Source of the DNA: a bacterium
GTDB taxonomy: Bacteria > Bacillota_I > Bacilli_A > Izemoplasmatales > UBA1188
Direction: 5' to 3'
Assembly: GCA_017960565.1 (NCBI GenBank)
Contig: JAGCYY010000009.1
Span: 70,874 to 134,873 of the forward strand
Length of the DNA: 64,000 nt
Shown here one piece after another: positions 14,056-48,233 of the stretch; position 1 is the first letter of the stretch, and each line of letters begins with the position of its first letter. The notes beneath the pieces are model-generated. The model was not told where the DNA came from and ran no database searches. It saw only the letters and a program-made list of their open reading frames with translations. A program made the translations under genes and the position numbers.

Positions 14056-14235
14056 CTAACGAGAGAATTTTCTCTTTCTATTTTCTTTAATTTTTTCTTT
14101 ACGTGCTACACTTGGTTTGAGGTAGAATTCTCTTCTACGTGCTTCTTGTAAAGTACCAGCTCTAGATACATCTCTTTTAAAACGACGAAGAGCGTCATCT
14201 AGTGATTCATTTTCACGAACGATAGTTTTTGCCAT
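14056..14235 (-). CDS. rpsU: 30S ribosomal protein S21
   Basis: Missed by the ORF track (59 aa). Translation: [71 protein letters not shown] upstream. Confidence 0.95.
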
Positions 14236-14407
14236 TTTCTCACCTCTTTTCAGTTTAACACCTTATCCATTATATACAATACTATTACAATTGTCAAAGA
14301 AAAAATAATCAAAAAATATAATATTCGAATTTATTTCAAAAAAATAGTTTTATGTGTTTATAAATATACAATTTTTTGGTAAAATAATATCCATAGAGGA
14401 ATGGAAA

Positions 14408-15028
14408 ATGAAATACAGATTTTTGTTTGAAGCTGACTGGAAAGTTATAATAATTATACTGGGCATAGTTGTTGGATTACTTGTAGTAATTTATTTTATG
14501 CTTAGTCATCATAGATTCAAAAAAGGCGCTAGAAAATTCGGCAATGAATTATCAGTAAAACACTCGATTGCGAGTAACAATGTTCAAAAAATGATGAATG
14601 AAATTAAAAAATCAAGAAACTATAATGGAACATATAATTCTCTTTCAGGTAAAGCAAAATCTAGATGTAAAAAATATTTCTATTCATTTATGGAAGATAT
14701 TCCACTATTCATTACTATTCTTTATAAAGTTAAAAGTGAAAGACCAGGTCATATTCATCTTGGGGCAACTGATTCATACGATTCAAGCACATATTCAAGC
14801 CAATGGTTATTGAATACTAATAAAAGCAAGAACAATAACTACAATAGATTAGTTAAATTCATCAACAAAAATAAAGCTTGTTTTGGAGTATTCGAAACCT
14901 TAACAAATATTTTCGATTTTGAAAAAGAGAATGAAAAAACTAGAACTAAAGACATTGAAACATTTCCATTCGCAAAAGAAAATGATGTATATATAAAATA
15001 TGTGCCTTCAAAGAAAAAAACCATATAA
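14408..15028 (+). CDS. Hypothetical membrane-anchored protein (one N-terminal TM)
   Basis: ATG at 14408 is preceded by GAGGA. TM segment VIIIILGIVVGLLVVIYFML. No recognisable family. The ORF-track GTG start at 14354 lacks an RBS. Confidence 0.55.
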   Translation: MKYRFLFEADWKVIIIILGIVVGLLVVIYFMLSHHRFKKGARKFGNELSVKHSIASNNVQKMMNEIKKSRNYNGTYNSLSGKAKSRCKKYFYSFMEDIPLFITILYKVKSERPGHIHLGATDSYDSSTYSSQWLLNTNKSKNNNYNRLVKFINKNKACFGVFETLTNIFDFEKENEKTRTKDIETFPFAKENDVYIKYVPSKKKTI

Positions 15029-15053: not shown

Positions 15054-15917
15054 TTATATAGATTTTAGTATATTTTCTATCGTTCTTCTTAGTTCTTCTT
15101 TTGAATTTTCTAAATTACTATAAAGAAGAATTTGTCCATCTTTATCCAAAAGATAATATTGATATTTATTATTGAATCCTTTGATATATACAAAGGATTT
15201 TTTTATTATTGCATCATATATTTTTTTGTCTAAGATTTTAGATTCTTTTTTTGTCTCTACTGGTTCAGATAAAAATAAATAGTTGTTGGTTGAATCAGCG
15301 AGTGAAACATAATATAAATCATCTATTTTTATGGTTCTTAGATTATTCACATTCATGTTTAAAATATTCTTACGAATAGTTGGAACTATGTTTGTTTCTA
15401 CGTTTTCAATAGAATCTATCTTGTAGATAACATTATTCTCTTTAAGTCTTTTTAGAAGGTTTTTAATTTTATACGCAAGATCATCTAATTCTTTTTTATT
15501 ATGTTTAAATGAAGTTCTTGCGATATTTATTCCACCTAAACTATAAGCTGAATAATAATATCCTTCTTTATTTTTAATGATTTTATATTCATCATTTAAA
15601 ATAGAACGTTTTGCATTTTCGATTAAGTTATCGAGGTTCACAAGCGATCTTGTGATTTCACTTACAAGGACTGGTTCATAATTATTAGAAAACAATATAA
15701 AATAATAATCTTGAATATTAGACCTGATTTTTGCAAACGTATTTGGCTTTATATTTAAAGATTTATTCTCTTTAAAAGGTGAAAATGATGAAGTTGTATT
15801 CTTTTTTTCTTTTTTAAAAATAGTTAATAATACTAATATCAAAATAATTATTACTGTCACAATTGTGATTATTAGCACATAATTGTCTTTTAAAAAATCT
15901 AAGATGGTATAAAACAT
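15054..15917 (-). CDS. Hypothetical membrane-anchored protein with four internal YegP/DUF1508-like repeats (tentative)
   Basis: N-terminal TM (LIITIVTVIIILILVLLTIF). Four ~40-aa units begin DYYFILFS, GYYYSAYS, DLYYVSLA and KYQYYLLD, each followed by a hydrophobic beta-like stretch, then S/T and a helix. Its start lies 1 nt after the stop of the upstream gene. Confidence 0.5.
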   Translation of the reverse strand: MFYTILDFLKDNYVLIITIVTVIIILILVLLTIFKKEKKNTTSSFSPFKENKSLNIKPNTFAKIRSNIQDYYFILFSNNYEPVLVSEITRSLVNLDNLIENAKRSILNDEYKIIKNKEGYYYSAYSLGGINIARTSFKHNKKELDDLAYKIKNLLKRLKENNVIYKIDSIENVETNIVPTIRKNILNMNVNNLRTIKIDDLYYVSLADSTNNYLFLSEPVETKKESKILDKKIYDAIIKKSFVYIKGFNNKYQYYLLDKDGQILLYSNLENSKEELRRTIENILKSI

Positions 15918-15918
15918 A

Positions 15919-17433
15919 TTAATCCTCTATTTCTATTATAGGATTAGAACCGCTATCTTTTAAAACTTTTTCCGCAGCTGCCGAGAAAGCTTGGGCTTTT
16001 ATAGTAACTTTTTTATTAAAATTACCACCTCTATAGATTACTTTATAATATTTAATCTTTTCTTCTAATAAGCCTTTTTCTTTTAGATAGTTGATATCGA
16101 TGATTTTTTTGTCAGAAATAATATCATTTATTTCATCTAAAAATACAATATCTCTTTCACCTTCAAGTGCAACTTTAACAGTTTCAAATGTTTCAATAAA
16201 ATTATTATCATCATCTATTGAGATTGTGAGGATCTTATCTTCTTTATATACTGGGAATTTTTTATTGATTTTAGCATTTTCATATTCTTCTTTGATACGT
16301 TTTAATTCTTCTTCAGAATAATCATCAACTTTAGCATATGTTTTTATTTGACCAGCTTCAAGAAGCGATTCGTTGTCATATAATTCACTTGCGTAATCGA
16401 TTTCATCTTTGATGAAACCTTCTTCAAGAAGGAATCTCTTTTTTAAATCTTCAATTAGATTTAAGGCAATATCTAATCTATCATAATTCTTGATTCTAAT
16501 CATTAAAGGTGTATCTTCAAATAATTCATATTTAGATACATCTTCAGATTTTACTTTTGATAATTTATATTTAGAGGTATCAAGTGCAAGATATAATACT
16601 AAATATTTTCCTCGAATTTGCATTTTTGCAAGTTTAATTTTGCCAATTGAATATGCTTCATATTTCCAACTAAATCTCGATTTTACTTTAGTAAATGATA
16701 AGAGACGATTCTTTAGTTTAGAATATATTGATTTAATTAAATCATCGGATTCTACAAGTTTTGCATAAAAACTTTTTCTAGTTTTTATGAAAACCTTGCT
16801 GGAATTCACAAAAATAACTGGATTTTTATATGTTCCATTTGCAGTTTCAATTGATTCTATTTCAGTTTCGTTTTCTCTATAAGATGATATCTCATAATCA
16901 TTTTTGATTAAGATATCGCCAAGATCCATTGTAAGCTGTTCTTCTTTGGTACGTGGTTTTTCAGGCTCAAGTTTTATAAGACCTCTTCTTGCTAATTCGA
17001 TTTCATCTTCATAAGGAAGATAATAATCGATTTTTGGAAGTCTCTTTTTTGCTTTTAAATTAAAGTTTTTGATTTCATCATCGATTAATCTAAAAGCGTA
17101 TTTAATTGTACGATTAGATTTTACATGAATTTTAAATCTTGTTTCTTTATATCTTCTTCTATCAGTTACATTTTCTTGATGATAAATATTTTGTGGGTAA
17201 TCTTCTATATTTAGATTTAAATATAAAGCAACATATTTGCCTCTTACAGATAATTTTGCAAAATTGATTCTTCCAACATTAAATGCATCATAGAACCAAC
17301 TTATTCTTGATTTCATGCCAAAAATAGACATTAATTTATTCTTTAATGTATTGTATACATATTTCACTCTGTCATCTGATAGAATATATTTAGCTAAAAA
17401 AGATTTTCTATATGTAATTGGAACATTTTTCAT
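15919..17433 (-). CDS. Hypothetical protein: two ~117-aa internal repeats plus a ribosomal uL15-like C-terminal domain
   Basis: Repeat 1 (aa 9-125) begins RKSFLAKYILSDD..KSRISWFYDAF..AKLSVRGKYVALYLNL. Repeat 2 (aa 219-335) begins RKSFYAKLVESDD..KSRFSWKYEAY..AKMQIRGKYLVLYLAL. The C-terminal YKVIYRGGNFNKKVTIKAQAFSAAAEKVLKDSGSNPIIE parallels the bacterial L15 C-terminus ([33 protein letters not shown]). Confidence 0.6.
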   Translation of the reverse strand: MKNVPITYRKSFLAKYILSDDRVKYVYNTLKNKLMSIFGMKSRISWFYDAFNVGRINFAKLSVRGKYVALYLNLNIEDYPQNIYHQENVTDRRRYKETRFKIHVKSNRTIKYAFRLIDDEIKNFNLKAKKRLPKIDYYLPYEDEIELARRGLIKLEPEKPRTKEEQLTMDLGDILIKNDYEISSYRENETEIESIETANGTYKNPVIFVNSSKVFIKTRKSFYAKLVESDDLIKSIYSKLKNRLLSFTKVKSRFSWKYEAYSIGKIKLAKMQIRGKYLVLYLALDTSKYKLSKVKSEDVSKYELFEDTPLMIRIKNYDRLDIALNLIEDLKKRFLLEEGFIKDEIDYASELYDNESLLEAGQIKTYAKVDDYSEEELKRIKEEYENAKINKKFPVYKEDKILTISIDDDNNFIETFETVKVALEGERDIVFLDEINDIISDKKIIDINYLKEKGLLEEKIKYYKVIYRGGNFNKKVTIKAQAFSAAAEKVLKDSGSNPIIEIED

Positions 17434-17520
17434 ACGATTACCTCTTGTTTAAAATTATATAACATTTTTATAAAAAAATATATAAAAAAGTAATAAACGT
17501 ATGCATTATTTTTATCTCTT

Positions 17521-17554
17521 TATAAAAAAGTAAATAAGCGCTTACTTATTTACT
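17521..17554 (-). terminator. Rho-independent terminator after mtaB
   Basis: 10-bp stem agtaaataag (17529-17538) / cttatttact (17545-17554), loop cgctta, then a T-run on the minus strand. Confidence 0.65.
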
Positions 17555-17559
17555 CTCTG

Positions 17560-25822: not shown

Positions 25823-26656
25823 TTAAAAATAAAACGAATATTCATAATTGTCTAAATCATCCATATTTTCAATTTCTATATATAACATTACGATGGCTCC
25901 TTTTTCTTCACTATATAAGATAATAACATCGCTTGCAGAATTTGGATTAGTTACAAAACTTTTTGTAGATAAATTACCTCTTGCAAAATATTCATAATCG
26001 AATATTGAATATTCATTTTTAGTAAAATATCCTGTCGATACAAATTTATCATAAAATAATTGATTATTTTCTTCATCTTTTAGTTTCATATATGAGAAAA
26101 ATTTTGTATCTTGAATTATTAAAGCTTTTTCATTTATTCTCTCTGTCACAAGTTTATTATCAAAGAAAGAATTATAGCCTCGATAGTCTTCAACAAAATG
26201 TGAAGAAAATGTAAGAGAAATAGAGAATATTTCTAAAAGAGCGAGCGCAAATAGTGCGCCAAATATTATCTTTAAAGCACCATTTGTTACACCTTTTCTT
26301 AAATTTACAGATGCATATATTATCAATATGACATTAAGAATCAAAGCTGCAAGAATGATTAAGCTTAATGGCCCAAGATTAGAAAGATAGAAAATGTCGA
26401 CACTTACATATATTAAAATAGTTATTACTGGTGCAGCAAATGTTAATAAGACAGCGAAGAATGTTAAGATTCTAGCGATTCTTCTAATCTTTTTTGCTTG
26501 ATTATAAGTTGCATCATCATATTCATATTTGTTTTGTTTTCTTGATTCTACGTCTTCATAATCATTATTAGATTTTTTAGATAATTTGGCTCCACAATAT
26601 GGACAATATTTAACGCTTTCATTTTCAATTTTTTGACCGCAATATGGACAATACAT
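25823..26656 (-). CDS. Zinc-ribbon domain membrane protein
   Basis: ATG at 26656 is preceded by AAGGAGG. The N-terminus MYCPYCGQKIENESVKYCPYCGAKL is a double CxxC zinc ribbon, followed by 3-4 TM segments. The ORF-track extension to 26722 runs into the tRNA. Confidence 0.8.
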   Translation of the reverse strand: MYCPYCGQKIENESVKYCPYCGAKLSKKSNNDYEDVESRKQNKYEYDDATYNQAKKIRRIARILTFFAVLLTFAAPVITILIYVSVDIFYLSNLGPLSLIILAALILNVILIIYASVNLRKGVTNGALKIIFGALFALALLEIFSISLTFSSHFVEDYRGYNSFFDNKLVTERINEKALIIQDTKFFSYMKLKDEENNQLFYDKFVSTGYFTKNEYSIFDYEYFARGNLSTKSFVTNPNSASDVIILYSEEKGAIVMLYIEIENMDDLDNYEYSFYF

Positions 26657-26683
26657 AGAAAATTCCTCCTTAAATTTAATATG

Positions 26684-26764
26684 TAGGAGAGATGGGACTT
26701 GAACCCACACGGATTGCTCCAATGGTGTTTGAGACCATCGCGTCTACCCTTCCGCCACTCTCCC
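26684..26764 (-). tRNA. tRNA-Leu (anticodon CAA), type II with long variable arm
   Basis: Manual cloverleaf of GGGAGAG UG GCG GAAGGGUAGA CGC G AUGGU CUCAAAC ACCAU UGGAGCAAUCCGU GUGGG UUCAAGU CCCAU CUCUCCU A. It has U8, a GG D-loop, a TUCAAGU T-loop, and an anticodon loop CU-CAA-AC. G1-U72 wobble. No encoded CCA. Confidence 0.9.
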
Positions 26765-40938: not shown

Positions 40939-42147
40939 TTATCTCTCCTTGTTTTTAAGGATTGCGATGTAATTCCAATAGAAAATTGATCTATAACCAT
41001 CTTTTGGATAGACTCTATATGTTTTATCTGGAGTTGGGACTTCAAAATCTCTTCCAAGAGTTATTGTGTAATTGATTACCTTGTTATTATAGATGCAGAT
41101 GTTTTTAGATTCATCTTCTGGACATAAAAATGAGATCTTTTCTCTATCCATAATAACTTTGCCACTAAATAGTGGTTCTTCTTTTAATGATTCAAAATAT
41201 GAGAATGTTGCTTCATCTTCGAGTATTAGACCATTATCAATCTCATTTTCAAAGCTTGTTCTATCGATGTCAAATAGATCTTTTAAATCTTTATATTTAG
41301 GGTTATTTTCTTTAAACCTATAGCTGTCTTTTTCAAATGTTAATGAGAGGCCACAAGACTTACATGTCAGATTTAATTTGTTAGTTTCAAAAGGGAGAAT
41401 CTCACCACAATCAGGACATTTCATAAGAACCTTTTCAAGTCCTCTAGCTTTGTTTTTTCTCATATATTTATATTCTGGATGTTCTCTCATGATAGATAGA
41501 TCATCATTAGAATCAAATGCTTTATTCAATATTTTATTGATAGTGTCGAGATTAAGGTTATCGATATCATTTTTGTCGATCAAAAGATTAATTGAAGCAT
41601 CGACAACGCCTTTTCCTGGTGTAGGATTCCATTTAGGGCTGAATAGGTATGTTCCTTGAGGGTTGATAAAATAAACATTAGGTTTATATTTCTTTATGAG
41701 CTTATCAAGACCTGATGGGAGGATTAATGGTTTTCCATATGTGGACATTTGGCCTTCTGGAAACATCATTACATTTCTGCCAAGCTTTAGATAATCAGCA
41801 ATTCTTATTATGCTTCTCACATCATTTCGATATTGATTTTTTGGAATTGTGCCTGTGATATTTAATAAAAATTTTAGGAAATTGTTTCGATACCAATAAG
41901 TTGTCGCTACAATATGACTTCTTACAGGATATATGAGCATTGGGACAATTAGAAAATCATAATATGATCTATGAGGCGAAATAATAAGCGATGGGCCTTC
42001 TATTTTTAATTTATTCCTCATCTTTATTTTAACCATAGTTTTTATCCAAAGAATTACTAGAGGTCCTAAAATATAATAGATAAAGAAACTAGGCTTTCTT
42101 AATCTTTTCTTTTTTTCTTTTTTATTTTTATTGATGTTAGATTTCAT
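40939..42147 (-). CDS. Lysophospholipid (PlsC-type) acyltransferase with an internal zinc ribbon
   Basis: HX4D motif HRSYYD and FPEGQMS. Later CPDCGEILPFETNKLNLTCKSCG. Confidence 0.7.
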   Translation of the reverse strand: MKSNINKNKKEKKKRLRKPSFFIYYILGPLVILWIKTMVKIKMRNKLKIEGPSLIISPHRSYYDFLIVPMLIYPVRSHIVATTYWYRNNFLKFLLNITGTIPKNQYRNDVRSIIRIADYLKLGRNVMMFPEGQMSTYGKPLILPSGLDKLIKKYKPNVYFINPQGTYLFSPKWNPTPGKGVVDASINLLIDKNDIDNLNLDTINKILNKAFDSNDDLSIMREHPEYKYMRKNKARGLEKVLMKCPDCGEILPFETNKLNLTCKSCGLSLTFEKDSYRFKENNPKYKDLKDLFDIDRTSFENEIDNGLILEDEATFSYFESLKEEPLFSGKVIMDREKISFLCPEDESKNICIYNNKVINYTITLGRDFEVPTPDKTYRVYPKDGYRSIFYWNYIAILKNKER

Positions 42148-43870
42148 TGTCCAATTTACCTTTTTCTATTATATAATCAACAAATATAATTATAGTAAAA
42201 AATAAGAAAATCTCAAGCAAATATATAAAGTATTGTGGAAAAGTTTGATATGTGAAATTAACTTTGAATATATAATTTATATATTCTGAGTTGTAATATG
42301 ACATCGATAATAAGAGAATGAAGAGAATAGAGAATGTGATAAAATACATAAGATAATTGGAAAATAGAGTAGTTTTTTGAACTTCTTGTGATTTTAGGTT
42401 AGCGTGTATTAGTTTATTCTTATCTCTTTCAAAAGAGTCATCAAACTCTTTTCTTTCTCTAATATATAAGATAATCACAAATGAAGATATGAGAATAAAT
42501 AGAATTGATGCAAAGATAAATTTGAGAATGGAATATCTATATAATTCTATATTATCTTCCATCTTTCTTTTGAGTTCACCATTAAAGATTTTATTGATAT
42601 CTTGAAATGATGATTTTTTGCCGTTTTCATATATCAATATTTTCTTATATTCACTATTAATTTCTTTGTTTGTATAGATTGTTGTGCCGGTTACATCATC
42701 AATAAATGAATATATTTTAAATGTCATAATCTCATTGTTTATTGATATTTCAACATCATCGCCAATATTATGATCTATTTCATTAAATATTGTCCTTGGA
42801 ACGATTATAGCATTTTCAGGAAGATAATCGAGTGATTCAAAGATAGAAGCATTATAAAATGATTCAAATTTTGTAAGGTCTAATGATAATAGTTCATATT
42901 TTTCATTATCTAATATGACATATTCAGAGCTATTAATAACATTATATTGATATTTAGATGCTGTAATGATTTTAGATAAGATTTCGTTGGTGTCTTTTGT
43001 CTTTATGACATAGTCATATTTCAAATAATTGGTGGAATATGATAATTTTTGATAATTTGAAGAAATAAAGACTACATTGATAAACATTGCGAGAACCGCA
43101 AAAACAAAATAAACGATGTTTTTTCTTCTAATAAAGAGATAGATATATGATGATCTACGTGATAAATTAATTCTTTTTCTGATTGAATATGCATATATTA
43201 TTTTGTATATTGCTTGTGATAAAAAGATGCTTATCGATAAGACAAATAGAATATATATGATGACAGATTTATCTATGAATAAAAATAAAAAGATGGAAAG
43301 AATTGCAAATATAAAAAATACATAATCATATTTTTCTAATAATTCACTATAATTGAAATCTAAAAATGTGTATGATGCAACTATAAAAGATGCGATAATT
43401 GGAAGAATTAGAGATAAGAATATGATATAAGGTTTTATAGACATTGAATAATCATATTTATGTCTAATGATTAGATAAAGGATTAGATAAATAAAAAGAG
43501 ATATGATAATTGTGAGAATTACTGAGATTAGTGAAATGATTAATTTTGATAAGATATATAAAAGATATTTATTTCTTTTTTTGATTTGCAGGCTGGTGAT
43601 AGAATTTAATATATTTTTTTCATCTAATCTTTTTCCGGTTTGAAAAAAGAGATATATTGAGTAACATATCACTAATATTTCAATAAATAAGATGATGTTA
43701 AGTCTGTTATATTTATATATGAGAGGAAGCATTAAACCTTTTTCTTCATTCAACATAAATAAAAAAAATAGTGAGACCGAAAGAAAGAAAAATCTTAAGA
43801 TGTCCACTATAAATTTCTTTGTCGGTTTATATGAAATTTTAAAGGCATATTTAAAGATACTAGAGTTCAC
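42137..43870 (-). CDS. Large polytopic membrane protein, probable FtsX/MacB-type permease partner (tentative)
   Basis: GTG start. Many N-terminal TM segments, a ~170-aa extracytoplasmic domain, and a C-terminal 3-TM bundle with RERKEF...ANLKSQEVQK, loosely like the FtsX domain. In a single-copy version its start would overlap the stop of the upstream ABC-like gene. Confidence 0.55.
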   Translation of the reverse strand: MNSSIFKYAFKISYKPTKKFIVDILRFFFLSVSLFFLFMLNEEKGLMLPLIYKYNRLNIILFIEILVICYSIYLFFQTGKRLDEKNILNSITSLQIKKRNKYLLYILSKLIISLISVILTIIISLFIYLILYLIIRHKYDYSMSIKPYIIFLSLILPIIASFIVASYTFLDFNYSELLEKYDYVFFIFAILSIFLFLFIDKSVIIYILFVLSISIFLSQAIYKIIYAYSIRKRINLSRRSSYIYLFIRRKNIVYFVFAVLAMFINVVFISSNYQKLSYSTNYLKYDYVIKTKDTNEILSKIITASKYQYNVINSSEYVILDNEKYELLSLDLTKFESFYNASIFESLDYLPENAIIVPRTIFNEIDHNIGDDVEISINNEIMTFKIYSFIDDVTGTTIYTNKEINSEYKKILIYENGKKSSFQDINKIFNGELKRKMEDNIELYRYSILKFIFASILFILISSFVIILYIRERKEFDDSFERDKNKLIHANLKSQEVQKTTLFSNYLMYFITFSILFILLLSMSYYNSEYINYIFKVNFTYQTFPQYFIYLLEIFLFFTIIIFVDYIIEKGKLDNEI

Positions 43871-43990
43871 TTAAGATACCTTCTTCAATGACAAATTTCT
43901 AAATTTCTTTGTCGGTTTATATGAAATTTTAAAGGCATATTTAAAGATACTAGAGTTCACTTAAGATACCTTCTTCAATGACAAATTTCT
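43811..43990. repeat. Perfect 90-bp tandem duplication (2 copies: 43811-43900, 43901-43990)
   Basis: Direct comparison shows both copies are identical at all 90 positions. The unit spans the ATPase-stop/permease-start junction. Confidence 0.98.
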
Positions 43991-44603
43991 TTGTGGCATA
44001 TTTTAACATATTGATATTTGTCGTAGTATGGAACATTGCAATATGAAACATACTATTGATAGTGTTTAACATTTTAAATATTTCATCTTGATGAGGTTTT
44101 GTTAGAAATTCAAAAGCGTTATCAATTAATAAAATAAAAGGTCTAGATATTATCGCTCTTGCAATACTTATTTTTTTTCTTTCGTATGGGTTAAGGTCGA
44201 TTGGATATTTATCTAATAAAGTTGCGATATCTAGAGTTTTAATTACTTCATTAAAATATGCTTTATCGATTTCAACTCTATTTATTTGTTGCGGAAGAGT
44301 GATATTTTCTTTTATTGAAAGATTAAAAAATAGATAATCATTTTTATCGATATATGATATATCTCTTGCGTGCCATTCATCGATATCATTTCTATTATAT
44401 TTGTTTATAAGTTCATCAAAATAGTAGATTTCTCCATCTACTGGCTTTTTTTCAAGATAAATAGCTTTTAATAATTGTGATCCTTCATGCTCATTTGAAT
44501 AGAGTACTAATGTATCACCTTCAGATACACTAAAAGAAATATTATCAATGAAATAATCATTATTTACATTTATCTTTAAATTTTTTGTTTCAATAATGTT
44601 CAT
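43950..44603 (-). CDS. Degenerate ABC ATPase-like protein (catalytic motifs lost)
   Basis: ABC NBD fold pattern with degraded motifs. Walker A position reads LYSNEHEGSQLL (no GK[ST]). Q-loop region YIDKND has no Gln. Signature is LNPYERKK instead of LSGGQ. Walker B is ILLIDNAF (Asp kept, catalytic Glu replaced by Asn). Confidence 0.7.
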   Translation of the reverse strand: MNIIETKNLKINVNNDYFIDNISFSVSEGDTLVLYSNEHEGSQLLKAIYLEKKPVDGEIYYFDELINKYNRNDIDEWHARDISYIDKNDYLFFNLSIKENITLPQQINRVEIDKAYFNEVIKTLDIATLLDKYPIDLNPYERKKISIARAIISRPFILLIDNAFEFLTKPHQDEIFKMLNTINSMFHIAMFHTTTNINMLKYATKKFVIEEGILSEL

Positions 44604-44709
44604 TCGCTGTCCTTTTATTTAATTTTATCACAAATATATAAATATTTGTAATACACCATTTGACAATACTATCAAAAATACTTAAAATTTTATTAAGGGA
44701 AATACAATC

Positions 44710-45159
44710 ATGGATTTAAGTTATTCAAAAAATAAATTTAATAAAAGACTTATTGGATATATTATTATTTTATTTATTTCAATGGGTATAATATCTTTTT
44801 TAGAATTTTATTTTATTAAGATTCTTTTTGAAAACGCCTTATTAATCCTTCTTTTAATATCTTTTTTGATGATAGCTTTATTTTCTTTGCTTATATATTT
44901 ATTGCTTATTGATCTATTAAATAAAAAAGATGTTGTTATAAAAATTGGTGAAGATGTTATCGGGTTTTATAATACAAAATATGATGATTTAAAAGAATAT
45001 AATATTCTAGATATAAAAGATATTTTAATTAAATATCATAAAGGTGGCATTAAATCTATAAAACTAATTGTTAAAAAAAGAAAGATAAATTTAAGAATAT
45101 ATAGCGATAATGACTTAGATATTTTAGCAAACAAGCTTCTTTTGAGGATGAATTCATGA
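44710..45159 (+). CDS. YdbS-like membrane protein with bacterial PH (bPH_2/DUF304-like) domain (tentative)
   Basis: Two TM segments followed by VVIKIGEDVIGFYN...ILDIKDILIKYHKGGIKSIKLIVKKRKINLRIY. 4-nt ATGA overlap with the next gene, as in ydbS-ydbT pairs. Confidence 0.45.
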   Translation: MDLSYSKNKFNKRLIGYIIILFISMGIISFLEFYFIKILFENALLILLLISFLMIALFSLLIYLLLIDLLNKKDVVIKIGEDVIGFYNTKYDDLKEYNILDIKDILIKYHKGGIKSIKLIVKKRKINLRIYSDNDLDILANKLLLRMNS

Positions 45160-46424
45160 TTACTTTAAAACAAAAAAACATCTTTATGATGTCAAGATCG
45201 CTTTATATTTTAATATTATTTAATCTTATGATTCTTCCTTGGGGAGGATATATTTATTCTGATTTGCTTCAAGGGTCATTACTATATATTCTTCTTTCAT
45301 ATTTAGGAGTATATTTAGTTATATATGGAATATTTTTGATATTTACACTCCCACGAACATTCAACATTACTGATAGTTATGTTGAAAAGATATATAATTT
45401 TTTATTTATTCACACAAGAAAAGTTTCATATTTCAACAATTCTAAAATATCTATTAGAATCAATAGTAATTTTATTCTATCTATATTCTATCTAGAAAGG
45501 ATTAGTGTATTTACTATTGATGAGAGAAAACTATTTTCTCTTTATGTCGAAAAAGATGAATCGATAAATATTATAAATGATTGTTTAAAAGTTAAAACTG
45601 AAGTTAAAAAGCCTTTTAAAAAGAATGAAGATTTCTTTAGAGATACTAAAGGAATTGAATCATATGTCTATACATCATTTCTTATATCAGTTTTTATTAC
45701 TCTTATTTTTAATTTAATATTTGGATTTTTCATCGATAATATAATGCGTTTGATATTTATAGGTTTTATCGTACTATTTGTGTCTTTTATTATCATCGTG
45801 TTTTATAATTTAACACATTCATTAAACCAGATATCTAAAGTTGATAATGAATATATACACACGATGAAAGGAAATATATTTAAATCCAACTATTATCTTC
45901 CAAGATCAAAACTCGATGATGTCATAATAATTGGCGGGCCATTTTCAAATTATCTTAATACATTTACTGTAATGACATTTATTACTAAGACAAGATTTGT
46001 GCTTATTCCGATGCACAAAGAAAATATTGAAATCGATCTTAATATTATACTTGATAAGAAAAATAAATCTTATGTAAATATTCCGAACCTTATCACTTAT
46101 TCTATTATCGCTTTAGTTCTTTCAATTGTCATATCTATTTTTAATATTATTGGGGGAATATCAACTCTTATTCTACTTGAATTTATTGTCTTAGTATTCA
46201 ATATGGGTAATTACTTTGTTTTAGATAATGAAAGAATAATCTCTAGAACTAAATTCTTTATTGCATTTTATAGAGTGATGAGATTTAGTCTTATGAAAAG
46301 AATTAAATTAAAAAGATATTATAAAGGTTATAGGGTTATTGAATATACATTATATGATAAAAAATATAATCAAATAATATCTTTATCAGATGCAACAGAA
46401 ATAACTAAACCTATCAAAAAATAA
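45156..46424 (+). CDS. YdbT-like membrane protein with repeated bPH-like modules (tentative)
   Basis: Alternating TM pairs and short soluble modules, e.g. ITDSYVEKIYNFLFIHTRKVSYFNNSKISIRINSNFILSIFYLERISVFT. Confidence 0.45.
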   Translation: MITLKQKNIFMMSRSLYILILFNLMILPWGGYIYSDLLQGSLLYILLSYLGVYLVIYGIFLIFTLPRTFNITDSYVEKIYNFLFIHTRKVSYFNNSKISIRINSNFILSIFYLERISVFTIDERKLFSLYVEKDESINIINDCLKVKTEVKKPFKKNEDFFRDTKGIESYVYTSFLISVFITLIFNLIFGFFIDNIMRLIFIGFIVLFVSFIIIVFYNLTHSLNQISKVDNEYIHTMKGNIFKSNYYLPRSKLDDVIIIGGPFSNYLNTFTVMTFITKTRFVLIPMHKENIEIDLNIILDKKNKSYVNIPNLITYSIIALVLSIVISIFNIIGGISTLILLEFIVLVFNMGNYFVLDNERIISRTKFFIAFYRVMRFSLMKRIKLKRYYKGYRVIEYTLYDKKYNQIISLSDATEITKPIKK

Positions 46425-46432
46425 TTTATAAT

Positions 46433-46465
46433 AAAATAAATATGCTCGCTGAGCATATTTATTTT
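46433..46465. terminator. Bidirectional terminator between convergent genes
   Basis: aaatatgctc/gct/gagcatattt, extended by A/T pairs. Confidence 0.75.
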
Positions 46466-46472
46466 ACATTTG

Positions 46473-47009
46473 TTAGTTTTCTATTTTATTTTTATATAAA
46501 TTATCTATTTCAATCGCTAATTCTTCTACTGTTAGATCATTAGAATTTAAAATATATGATACTCCATCAATGTTTTTTCTATTAAACACTAAATGATCAC
46601 CAGTTAGTCTCTCATTAATTTTTATTATATTGTCTCCACGTTTTATCATTCTTTCTTTTCTTATTTCATCTCTTGTATCAAGGTAAAATGAGATAATGTT
46701 TTTCATATGAGAATTCTTATATGCCATAAAACCTGATGGTTCTAATATTACTACTTTTTCATCAGTAATATCTTTTTTCAATGTTCCATAATAATTTGAA
46801 TTATATATAACGTATTCAAAAAATTCATTTTTATTCATACGATTAATGAATTCTTCTTTTGAAATAAAATTGTAGTCAATTCCTTCTTTTTCAGCAATTC
46901 TTTTTTCTCTTGTCGTATATGTCACAAGTTTTGTATATCCCATATTTAGTACTAAATATTTACATACTTCAGTTTTGCCGCTTGCAGAAGGGCCTATTAA
47001 GATAATCAT
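46473..47009 (-). CDS. Guanylate-kinase-family protein
   Basis: P-loop GPSASGKTE and TTREKRIAEKEGIDYNFISKEEF (the TTR..R.GE..G.DY.F pattern). 178 aa. Confidence 0.7.
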   Translation of the reverse strand: MIILIGPSASGKTEVCKYLVLNMGYTKLVTYTTREKRIAEKEGIDYNFISKEEFINRMNKNEFFEYVIYNSNYYGTLKKDITDEKVVILEPSGFMAYKNSHMKNIISFYLDTRDEIRKERMIKRGDNIIKINERLTGDHLVFNRKNIDGVSYILNSNDLTVEELAIEIDNLYKNKIEN

Positions 47010-47012
47010 ATC

Positions 47013-47642
47013 TTATATAAAACCTCTATTTTTTATATATGGGTTATTTGTAAGTTCATCTTTTAATGTTGTGTTTGTATAGTGTCCAGGATAGATGATG
47101 GTTTTCTTTGAAAAAGATTTAGAGATAAATTTTAGTGATTCATTCATCTCTTTATTATTTCCGGTTGGAAGATCGCATCTTCCGATTGAACCTTTAAAGA
47201 GAGTATCACCTGAAAAGATTACATCATTTATTTTTATAATTGAACTACCTTTGGTGTGACCTTTTGTATTATAGAATGTAAAATCTGATATATTTTCAAT
47301 ATCATTATTGATCTTGATAATATTTAAATCTTTTTTATATTGTTTAGAAATGTTTAGAAACATACCACAGTTTAGCGAAGGATCATATATCATATCGTAA
47401 TCGTGATAATTTATATAAATAGGGCAATTATTATTTGAGATAGATAATTTATCCATATCACCTGTATGATCAAGATGAGCATGAGTTAAAAATATTCTAG
47501 ATATTAATAATTTTTCATCTTTTAAGAGCTTTTGAATTTTGTCCGTATTAAAACCAGGATCGATGATAGTAACATCTTCTCCCCTAATAACAATATAACA
47601 ATTTTCATCATAAATAGGATCTGTAAGCCTTAGTATTCTCAT
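47013..47642 (-). CDS. MBL-fold metallo-hydrolase (glyoxalase II-like)
   Basis: HxHxDH motif LTHAHLDHTGD, later GHTKGS and GRCDLP. ATG at 47642 (MRILRL) is preferred; the ORF-track TTG start lies inside the rpmG terminator hairpin. Confidence 0.85.
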   Translation of the reverse strand: MRILRLTDPIYDENCYIVIRGEDVTIIDPGFNTDKIQKLLKDEKLLISRIFLTHAHLDHTGDMDKLSISNNNCPIYINYHDYDMIYDPSLNCGMFLNISKQYKKDLNIIKINNDIENISDFTFYNTKGHTKGSSIIKINDVIFSGDTLFKGSIGRCDLPTGNNKEMNESLKFISKSFSKKTIIYPGHYTNTTLKDELTNNPYIKNRGFI

Positions 47643-47663
47643 AACTAGATTATACAATAAAAA

Positions 47664-47690
47664 TAAAAAAAACTTCAAATTGAAGTTTTG
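47664..47690 (-). terminator. Rho-independent terminator after rpmG
   Basis: Minus strand reads aaaacttcaa/tt/tgaagtttt followed by TTTTTTTTATTTTT. Confidence 0.8.
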
Positions 47691-47692
47691 TT

Positions 47693-47851
47693 TTATTTCT
47701 TTTCTTTGTTGACAGTCTTCTTATTGCAAACTTTACAGTATTTTAAAACTTCCATTTTTTCTGAATGTAATTTTTTGTTTCTTGTGCCGTTGTAGTTTTC
47801 ACTGCCACATTCACTGCATTTTAATACGAAACTTAATCTTCCGTCAGCCAT
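47693..47851 (-). CDS. rpmG: 50S ribosomal protein L33
   Basis: Missed by the ORF track (52 aa). Translation: MADGRLSFVLKCSECGSENYNGTRNKKLHSEKMEVLKYCKVCNKKTVNKEKK, with the CxxC...CxxC zinc ribbon and L33 pattern. GGAGG RBS upstream. Confidence 0.93.
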   Translation of the reverse strand: MADGRLSFVLKCSECGSENYNGTRNKKLHSEKMEVLKYCKVCNKKTVNKEKK

Positions 47852-48233
47852 TTAACATCTGCCTCCATATTTATTCCATTAAGAATAATAACATTTTTTT
47901 ATTTATAAATCAAGTTTTAATTTGCGTTTTAAATTATATTTAAAATATATTGTTTAAAATTGTAATTTATATTATTTTATGATAAAAATATAAATAATGA
48001 GGCTTTTTATAGAAGAAATATTGTGAAGAAAAAAAGGGGAAGAAAAAGAAAATACTGCTATATTACAAAAGATATGGATGGAAAGATAGTCTTATTAGCA
48101 CACGAAGTCGGAAGTTTTTATTGTGATAAGAATGGAAATACGTATCAAAATATTGGTGGGAATGAATTTATAAAAATATAATATTTATCTTTTCAATTTA
48201 AACCATATAGTTTAACAGTGGTATAATAAAGGT

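Follow-up and report, generated by a model that had tools for sequence, protein, structure and literature searches.

The present analysis concerns a minus-strand gene for a 504-amino-acid (aa) protein (Table 1) in a window that comprises 64,000 nucleotides (nt) of the bacterial contig JAGCYY010000009.1. It is found that this protein represents the soluble, cytoplasmic form, with two modules, of a large family that is uncharacterised and mostly from Firmicutes, and in which the usual layout is an optional huge extracellular region, one or more membrane helices, a Lys/Arg cluster, a Glu-rich linker, one to three copies of a module and, optionally, a uL15-like tail. Sequence profiles and structural models identify the repeated module as a divergent DUF5655 domain, the predicted fold of which is of the YjbR/YdhG-like double-wing kind, and trace the C-terminal domain to the globular part of uL15, a ribosomal protein, here placed within a protein that is not ribosomal. 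It is noted that the component domains all belong to known families and that the PF00828 domain of the tail is already detected by databases; the architecture that reuses the ribosomal-protein domain is undescribed and widespread. In the literature no publication was found on this domain architecture or on the function of DUF5655, and searches on DUF5655, on the candidate defence protein PDC-S18, on uL15-like fusions and on YegP found no functional study.

The assignment of the tail is based on profile matches and on structural comparison. Residues 430-495 match PF00828 Ribosomal_L27A, the uL15/eL18 globular domain, with 38.8 bits versus a cut-off of 21.5 (E 1.3e-9, profile positions 2-68 of 72), and in the comparison by sequence with the bacterial uL15 chains in the PDB the best E-value is 0.004, with the tail aligned to uL15 residues 75-141. 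In the full-length AlphaFold2 (AF2) model, which has a mean predicted local distance difference test score (pLDDT) of 80 and a predicted template-modelling score (pTM) of 0.38, so that the inter-domain arrangement is untrustworthy and nothing is taken from it, the tail fits uL15 in many ribosome structures, the best Foldseek match having E 8e-5 and a root-mean-square deviation (rmsd) of 2.0 Å over 75 columns. A preliminary description of the gene, made from the DNA letters, had proposed an L15-like tail (the part quoted there is residues 444-501) and had called for Pfam and for structure prediction with Foldseek as checks; both checks give the uL15 domain, the first above its cut-off and the second at about 2 Å.

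By contrast, the remainder of uL15 is missing. On the rplO equivalog model TIGR01071 the protein scores 29.6 bits versus the required 77.95, with model positions 72-139 of 144 being the only ones matched. Nothing upstream of residue 426 aligns to this model, the N-terminus being module 1, and the Gly/Arg/Lys-rich N-terminal extension of uL15, of about 70 residues, is absent, as had been stated correctly in the preliminary description. The usual place of rplO is the spc operon, between rpmD and secY. No spc-operon gene lies near the 504-aa gene, the neighbours of which are mtaB upstream and a gene for a membrane protein with YegP-like repeats downstream. The earlier remark that the gene sits far from any ribosomal operon holds in this respect, but the gene of ribosomal protein bS21, rpsU, is 1.7 kb away. 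The latter (14056-14235, minus strand) encodes 59 aa, below the 60-aa threshold for open reading frames (ORFs), and is 69-98% identical in the related loci. The low equivalog score, together with the lack of the N-terminal extension, led us to reject the possibility that the 504-aa protein is a genuine ribosomal protein, and the name 'uL15 family ribosomal protein', which NCBI gives to one orthologue, is misleading.

The internal repeat is evident from the comparison of one half of the protein with the other, where BLASTP gives a gapless alignment of 164 residues with 37% identity and E 1e-29 (residues about 4-167 versus about 217-380), and where the Smith-Waterman score is 270 versus 41 ± 8 for shuffled sequences (z = 29). 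The paralogous repeats noticed before at residues 9 and 219 are thus real, and the early stretch of the segments quoted for them, which had been called roughly half identical, has 35 identical positions out of 66 (53%). The module is duplicated as was described, but its length of about 117 aa was an underestimate: 47 of those 117 positions are identical (40%), and the repeat really extends over about 160 aa. The two modules are basic, with isoelectric points (pI) of 9.86 for module 1 and 9.19 for module 2, and the acidic linker between them (pI 4.4) is disordered according to the model. The connector that follows module 2 is modelled as a helix (374-389) and two strands (396-406 and 412-422) with pLDDT of about 60-85. 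The protein has no membrane helix and contains no cysteine.

For the fold of the module, the AF2 model of residues 1-160 has pLDDT 94 and pTM 0.88. The module model, built on an alignment of 26 modules (A2), has an alpha/beta fold in which a helix pair and a four-stranded meander are accompanied by a fifth strand, a long helix and a short extension of helix and strand. Its top match among the PDB structures is E. coli YjbR, 2fki, which is weak (Foldseek E 0.04, template-modelling (TM) scores 0.46/0.60, rmsd 4.5 Å, 14% identity). YdhG-like DUF1801 proteins are also among the best matches, likewise weak, namely Listeria 9t2w (E 0.07) and B. subtilis YdhG 2oc6 (E 0.11), and lower in the list stand 2kl4, 2od0 and the C-terminal domain of T4 MotA, 5jlt. 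In BFVD, the library of predicted viral structures, the closest protein carries the annotation 'DUF5655 domain-containing protein' (E 9.5e-4, rmsd 3.1 Å over 109 columns, probability 1.0), both structures compared being predicted ones.

The sequence profiles point to the same family. The modules of the window protein give no DUF5655 match in Pfam even at E <= 10. Module 2 of the orthologue P0017 (residues 213-309) matches PF18899 DUF5655 with 27.3 bits versus a cut-off of 24, and the five-module relative P0045 scores 62.8 bits on the same profile. In addition, the module of one relative, P0055, matches DUF1801 (PF08818) at E 6e-5, which is under the Pfam cut-off. Moreover, the window protein matches the C-terminal halves, and these only, of two PADLOC models of PDC-S18: PDLC04946 at E 1.4e-12 for the whole protein, with residues 192-330 as the best stretch, and PDLC04945 at E 2.9e-8, through residues 19-120 of module 1, the model positions covered being 175-319 of 365 and 198-300 of 302, respectively. 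By these profile matches the module is homologous to the C-terminal domain of PDC-S18. With the module profile nothing meaningful is found among the PDB sequences (best E 0.18, and no YjbR chain at E <= 10), and PF04237 (MmcQ/YjbR) has no match in the Pfam scans of the window protein and its relatives. It is known that YjbR/MmcQ has a CyaY-like double-wing fold resembling the DNA-binding C-terminal domain of T4 MotA, with the DNA binding by YjbR being itself a prediction (PMC7641849), and that YjbR is structurally similar to the DNA-recognition domain of McrB (PMC3424535). The preliminary description could not assign the repeated module to a named family and had named, as a result that would speak against it, a known unrelated domain with an established function. 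The module can now be assigned as a divergent DUF5655 domain through the Pfam matches of P0017 and P0045, PDC-S18 and the modelled fold, and DUF5655 is a domain without an established function, so that this opposing case does not arise.

A word-indexed search gave 44 homologues of the 504-aa protein. Along their full length the close orthologues show 54-76% identity; they have the same length and no membrane helix, and come only from metagenome-assembled genomes (MAGs) of uncultured Bacilli/Firmicutes, the named sources being sheep rumen and reindeer. An orthologue with 54% identity is found on a 3.6-kb contig labelled 'Gammaproteobacteria bacterium' (JAILNJ010000093.1); the gene is one of low-G+C Bacilli, and the label probably reflects misbinning or a wrong taxonomic assignment of the MAG. 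In the more distant homologues a hydrophobic helix at the N-terminus is followed by an acidic linker, a single module and the uL15 tail. No relatives of the 504-aa protein were found in the phage and plasmid collections, a result that speaks against its having come from a mobile element. When the module profile was run in an exhaustive HMMER search, 3559 representatives at 50% identity reached E <= 1e-3, and 1898 of them E <= 1e-30; the family reaches 7 modules per protein and lengths of 4721 aa.

The layouts were determined in 192 available members, annotated by means of profiles made here for the module and the tail, together with a hydrophobicity scan, the best 150 of the 3559 representatives being inspected. 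The uL15-like tail is present in 89 and absent from 103 of these members, and a hydrophobic segment precedes the first module in 118. After this segment Lys and Arg amount to 3.98 per 12 residues versus 0.99 before it, the former number being the larger in 106 of the 118 members (Wilcoxon p = 3e-17), and the linker from the segment to the first module contains 20% Glu and has a median length of about 94 residues. Because Lys and Arg cluster after the helix, the positive-inside rule places the cassette of modules and tail, as predicted from sequence, on the cytoplasmic face of the membrane in the anchored members. Some members are surface proteins of 1500-4700 aa with signal peptides and with Beta_helix_3 or Listeria-Bacteroides repeats upstream of the membrane segments; these giants have one membrane helix, or three by reading of the sequences, ahead of the cassette. 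In P0098 and P0125 a signal peptide is combined with a single helix, so that the cassette must be cytoplasmic. Note also that in locus L003 (1-7107) the gene of a 2233-aa DUF285/LRR_5 surface protein overlaps by 4 nt the start of a gene for a protein with a transmembrane segment, module and uL15 tail (P0034), and that this pair resembles one of the giant fused proteins divided in two, or else the outcome of a recent frameshift.

The modules are basic throughout the family, with a median pI of 9.4 (n = 436). A second recurrent architecture, with neither helix nor tail, has 3-7 modules fused to DUF2357, which is the N-terminal domain of McrC that engages the McrB GTPase (PMC11090510). Among the 13 multi-module proteins without membrane segment and tail that were scanned, DUF2357 is found at E <= 0.001 in 9, and 8 of these are above the Pfam cut-off. 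In loci L016 (2743-8536) and L018 (1491-7100) an AAA+ protein that matches PADLOC PDC-M26A with E 1e-34 to 1e-35 is encoded upstream of a DUF2357 protein with three modules, the two genes being adjacent in L018 and about 680 nt apart in L016. A canonical McrB beside the DUF2357-module proteins was considered and rejected, for Pfam gave only weak AAA_5, AAA_22 and nSTAND3 matches and PADLOC then gave the PDC-M26A-like one. A protein of 232-246 aa with weak S24/S26 peptidase-like matches recurs in these two loci and in L017.

Within the clade of the window, the comparisons were made with six close loci from the scan with alignment A3. Across them the 504-aa protein is 54-73% identical, versus 55-65% for MtaB, 55-73% for YbeY, 51-62% for RsmE and 39-66% for RecO. 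Because this identity is comparable to that of MtaB, YbeY and RsmE and above that of RecO, the sequences place the protein under housekeeping-level constraint. By region, the mean pairwise identity is 77% for module 1, 61% for module 2, 46% for the tail, 46% for the connector and 37% for the linker, the tail being the least conserved folded domain in this clade. The position of the gene is constant wherever the flanks are readable, after mtaB and before rpsU-phoH-ybeY-cdd-era-recO-glyS. However, this block resembles what we take to be the ancestral Firmicutes arrangement, judging from the gene order of B. subtilis, with the 504-aa gene presumably inserted at a variable spot, and for this reason the neighbourhood is not strong functional evidence. 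The ATG of the downstream gene lies 1 nt past the stop codon of the 504-aa gene, with a GAGGA inside the end of the latter, and a homologue of this downstream gene, encoding 275-290 aa, is found within 1-5 nt in the window and in loci L004, L005, L006 and L007. Its 287-aa product in the window matches DUF1508 with E 4.6e-5 and 23.7 bits versus a cut-off of 22.

Based on these data, we tentatively propose that the 504-aa protein acts as a nucleic-acid-binding multivalent scaffold at the inner face of the membrane, with the anchor provided in trans in this lineage. The basic modules would be the nucleic-acid-binding units, by analogy with what has been proposed for related double-wing domains. 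Several modules together with a domain of the rRNA-binding type could then provide multivalent contacts by which DNA, structured RNA or ribosomes are kept close to the membrane, and the membrane anchor, which is a fused helix in other members, would be supplied here by the co-transcribed YegP-repeat membrane protein. The nucleic-acid binding is consistent with the presence among the fold neighbours of YjbR and the C-terminal domain of T4 MotA, both described as double-wing DNA-binding folds (PMC7641849), as well as with the basic character of the modules and with the DUF2357 fusions. Moreover, the variability of the tail, its partial absence, the predicted placement at the membrane face and the McrC-like links suggest general nucleic-acid binding at least as much as they suggest the ribosome.

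Several points weigh against this proposal. Where solved structures are matched by the module, the similarity is weak (Foldseek E 0.04-0.1, TM scores 0.46-0.60) and at the level of the fold only; since the iron-handling YdhG/Fra proteins belong to the same fold class, the fold does not ensure nucleic-acid binding. The window protein lacks a membrane helix of its own, and its link to the downstream membrane protein is one of gene adjacency alone; the downstream gene is missing in the orthologous locus L001, and the partner is fast-evolving, with 19-34% identity. Sequence resembling the Listeria-Bacteroides repeats stands on the module side of the helix in P0050 and P0038, as read by eye and unconfirmed by Pfam, which would complicate the argument on topology. 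Finally, the gene neighbourhoods of the distant members are not conserved among the loci compared, the neighbours being an ATP-binding cassette transporter and an unannotated Cys-rich protein in one case, SbcCD-like genes in another and a DUF285/LRR surface protein in a third.

By contrast, in the preliminary description it was proposed that the protein is an RNA- or ribosome-associated accessory factor. In its specific form, the tail would dock on 23S rRNA or on the pre-50S particle at or near the uL15 site, or would tether ribosomes to the membrane in the anchored relatives, with a role in assembly, hibernation or localisation. To our knowledge the PF00828 fold is otherwise seen only in ribosomal proteins, and the match here is complete (nearly the whole profile is covered, at an rmsd of about 2 Å); the housekeeping-level conservation of the gene and its position within a block containing the translation-related genes rsmE, mtaB, rpsU, ybeY and era are also consistent with such a role. 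Against it, the tail is the least conserved folded part, 46% versus 77% for module 1, and is absent from more than half of the sampled members; the block looks, from the gene order of B. subtilis, like an ancestral one with a variable place of insertion, the distant members have no translation-related neighbours, and the N-terminal extension with which uL15 penetrates the rRNA core is missing. We regard a ribosome-specific factor as unlikely, though still in contention.

A more far-reaching version of the scaffold proposal is that the cassette of DUF5655-like modules and uL15 domain is a cytoplasmic coupling device of Firmicutes envelope proteins, in which the uL15 domain would dock ribosomes or rRNA while the modules would hold nucleic acid, physically tying the giant surface proteins, or in this lineage the partner in trans, to the translation or nucleoid machinery. 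We put it forward as an unlikely, speculative extension.

A role in anti-phage or foreign-DNA sensing is less probable again. Here the modules would recognise invading, possibly modified DNA, as in the PDC-S18 and the McrBC-like PDC-M26 candidates, and the anchored forms would meet the DNA upon its entry. Both PDC-S18 models are matched by the window protein, the multi-module relatives carry DUF2357, with PDC-M26A-like AAA+ neighbours, and a DUF5655 protein is present inside the BREX locus of M. smithii (PMC12487256). The PDC systems were defined by their embedding in BREX, DISARM and type I restriction-modification loci, and are themselves still candidates (bioRxiv 10.1101/2024.01.29.577857). 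What the window protein shares with them is the one domain, the first approximately 175-200 positions of PDC-S18 and DUF2357 being absent from it; moreover, unlike typical defence genes, the gene keeps a syntenic place in a housekeeping region from one MAG to another and is well conserved there, relatives are lacking in the phage and plasmid collections, and the anchored single-module relative P0041 has no PADLOC match at E <= 0.01.

Frataxin-like iron handling, with the modules binding or donating iron through a fold that resembles YdhG/Fra and CyaY-like proteins, is very improbable. The Foldseek matches to 9t2w, entitled 'YdhG-like domain-containing protein (Frataxin)', and to YdhG 2oc6, and the sub-threshold DUF1801 match of one relative, speak for it. 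However, iron binding of the frataxin type uses acidic patches, and the modules are strongly basic, both in the window protein (pI 9.2-9.9) and across the 436 of the family; the fusion partners, the N-terminal domain of McrC and the uL15 domain, are related to nucleic acids, and there are no cysteines. That the protein is a divergent but genuine large-subunit component, a uL15 paralogue or replacement built into the ribosome, is scarcely credible in spite of the NCBI name and the PF00828 match, because, in addition to its low equivalog score and the lack of the extension, its length is 3.5 times what would be expected, its gene is outside an spc-type operon and its relatives are membrane-anchored or parts of proteins of up to 4721 aa.

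Returning to the gene itself, the ORF given in the preliminary description is real, being maximal and beginning with ATG. A Shine-Dalgarno-like AAGAGGT stands 7 nt upstream of this ATG, as read directly from the sequence, and between the mtaB-like gene and the 504-aa gene a hairpin with a T-run is followed by an A/T-rich promoter-like stretch. A single promoter-like match, by consensus evidence only, lies upstream of the gene at 17534-17505 on the minus strand. The features are collected in Table 1.

Table 1. Coordinates in the window of the 504-aa gene, of the parts of its product and of the adjoining features.
Feature	Position	Strand	Description and basis
Complete coding sequence	15919..17433	-	504 aa, stop codon included; ATG start; maximal ORF
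Module 1, residues ~4-167	16933..17424	-	Basic DUF5655-like domain, predicted double-wing-type fold; internal repeat, AF2 model, fold matches, PADLOC PDC-S18
Acidic disordered linker, residues ~168-214	16792..16932	-	pLDDT <50 over 165-215; pI 4.4
Module 2, residues ~215-380	16294..16791	-	Second DUF5655-like copy; repeat alignment, orthologue Pfam match, PADLOC PDC-S18
Connector, residues ~381-425	16159..16293	-	Predicted helix and beta-hairpin; no family match
uL15-type C-terminal globular domain, residues ~426-500	15934..16158	-	PF00828, partial TIGR01071 match, PDB uL15 chains, Foldseek
Upstream intergenic region	17434..17559	-	Hairpin then T-run after mtaB, A/T-rich promoter-like stretch, Shine-Dalgarno-like site; read from sequence
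Downstream co-operonic gene	15054..15917	-	287 aa; N-terminal membrane helix, Lys-rich stretch, about four YegP/DUF1508-like repeats

Some other features of the window are also noted. Convergent with the two-gene operon, at 14354-15028 on the plus strand, is the gene of a 224-aa protein with a hydrophobic N-terminal segment and no family match, which is only weakly conserved (25-48% identical) at the same position in the related loci. A lone tRNA gene (26684-26764, minus strand; Rfam RF00005, 53 bits) overlaps the annotated end of a TTG-start ORF (25823-26722), and because of this overlap the start of the ORF is probably over-extended. The region 42001-48000 has the lowest G+C content of the window, 0.23-0.24 versus about 0.28-0.30 for the rest; its GC skew turns locally positive at 42-44 kb, and it could be a horizontally acquired or a surface-protein region.

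The architecture matters because it is rare for the globular domain of a ribosomal protein to be put to use elsewhere than in the ribosome, and here such a domain is fixed as the C-terminal end of thousands of Firmicutes proteins. Many of these are membrane-anchored, and some rank with the largest surface proteins that their genomes encode. Should the cassette bind ribosomes, RNA or DNA at the membrane, a new coupling between envelope and cytoplasm would be present in gut and rumen Firmicutes, and should it act as a tether, the recruited ribosomal-protein domain would form a new kind of link from ribosome or nucleoid to the membrane. In practical terms, the label 'uL15 family ribosomal protein' could corrupt the sets of ribosomal markers that are used for the phylogeny and completeness of MAGs. 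For DUF5655, which is found in candidate defence loci, the data provide a structural and contextual hypothesis, that of a nucleic-acid-binding double-wing fold.

Finally, we compare the window protein with the known systems. With uL15 (rplO; PF00828, TIGR01071) it shares the motifs and the globular-domain fold of its last approximately 75 residues, but it has 504 aa versus about 145 aa (140-147 aa in the PDB chains), has no basic N-terminal extension, stands in another gene context and belongs to a family with membrane-anchored members and members fused to surface proteins. With DUF5655 (PF18899) and PDC-S18 the module is homologous and shares the predicted fold; unlike DUF5655, it has an extra C-terminal helix-strand extension of about 40 residues (residues ~125-160) that is conserved in the family, and the tandem copies, the membrane anchor and the uL15 tail are features of the family that are undescribed for DUF5655 proteins, while the first approximately 175-200 model positions of PDC-S18 have no counterpart in the window protein. 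Like MmcQ/YjbR (PF04237) and the C-terminal domain of MotA, the module is a small alpha/beta domain with basic charge, the resemblance being only at the level of the fold; to MmcQ/YjbR there is no sequence-profile link. The likeness to YdhG/Fra and DUF1801 (PF08818) is also one of fold, through 9t2w and 2oc6, and the module differs from these in being basic rather than acidic; nothing that points to iron handling was found. In the McrC-like proteins (DUF2357; PDC-M26) the same module occurs, there in 3-7 tandem copies; unlike them, the window protein has no DUF2357 or nuclease domain, and among the neighbour ORFs identified from their translations, most of which were not scanned with Pfam, there is no AAA+ gene beside the 504-aa gene, which instead carries two such modules in front of a domain of ribosomal descent.

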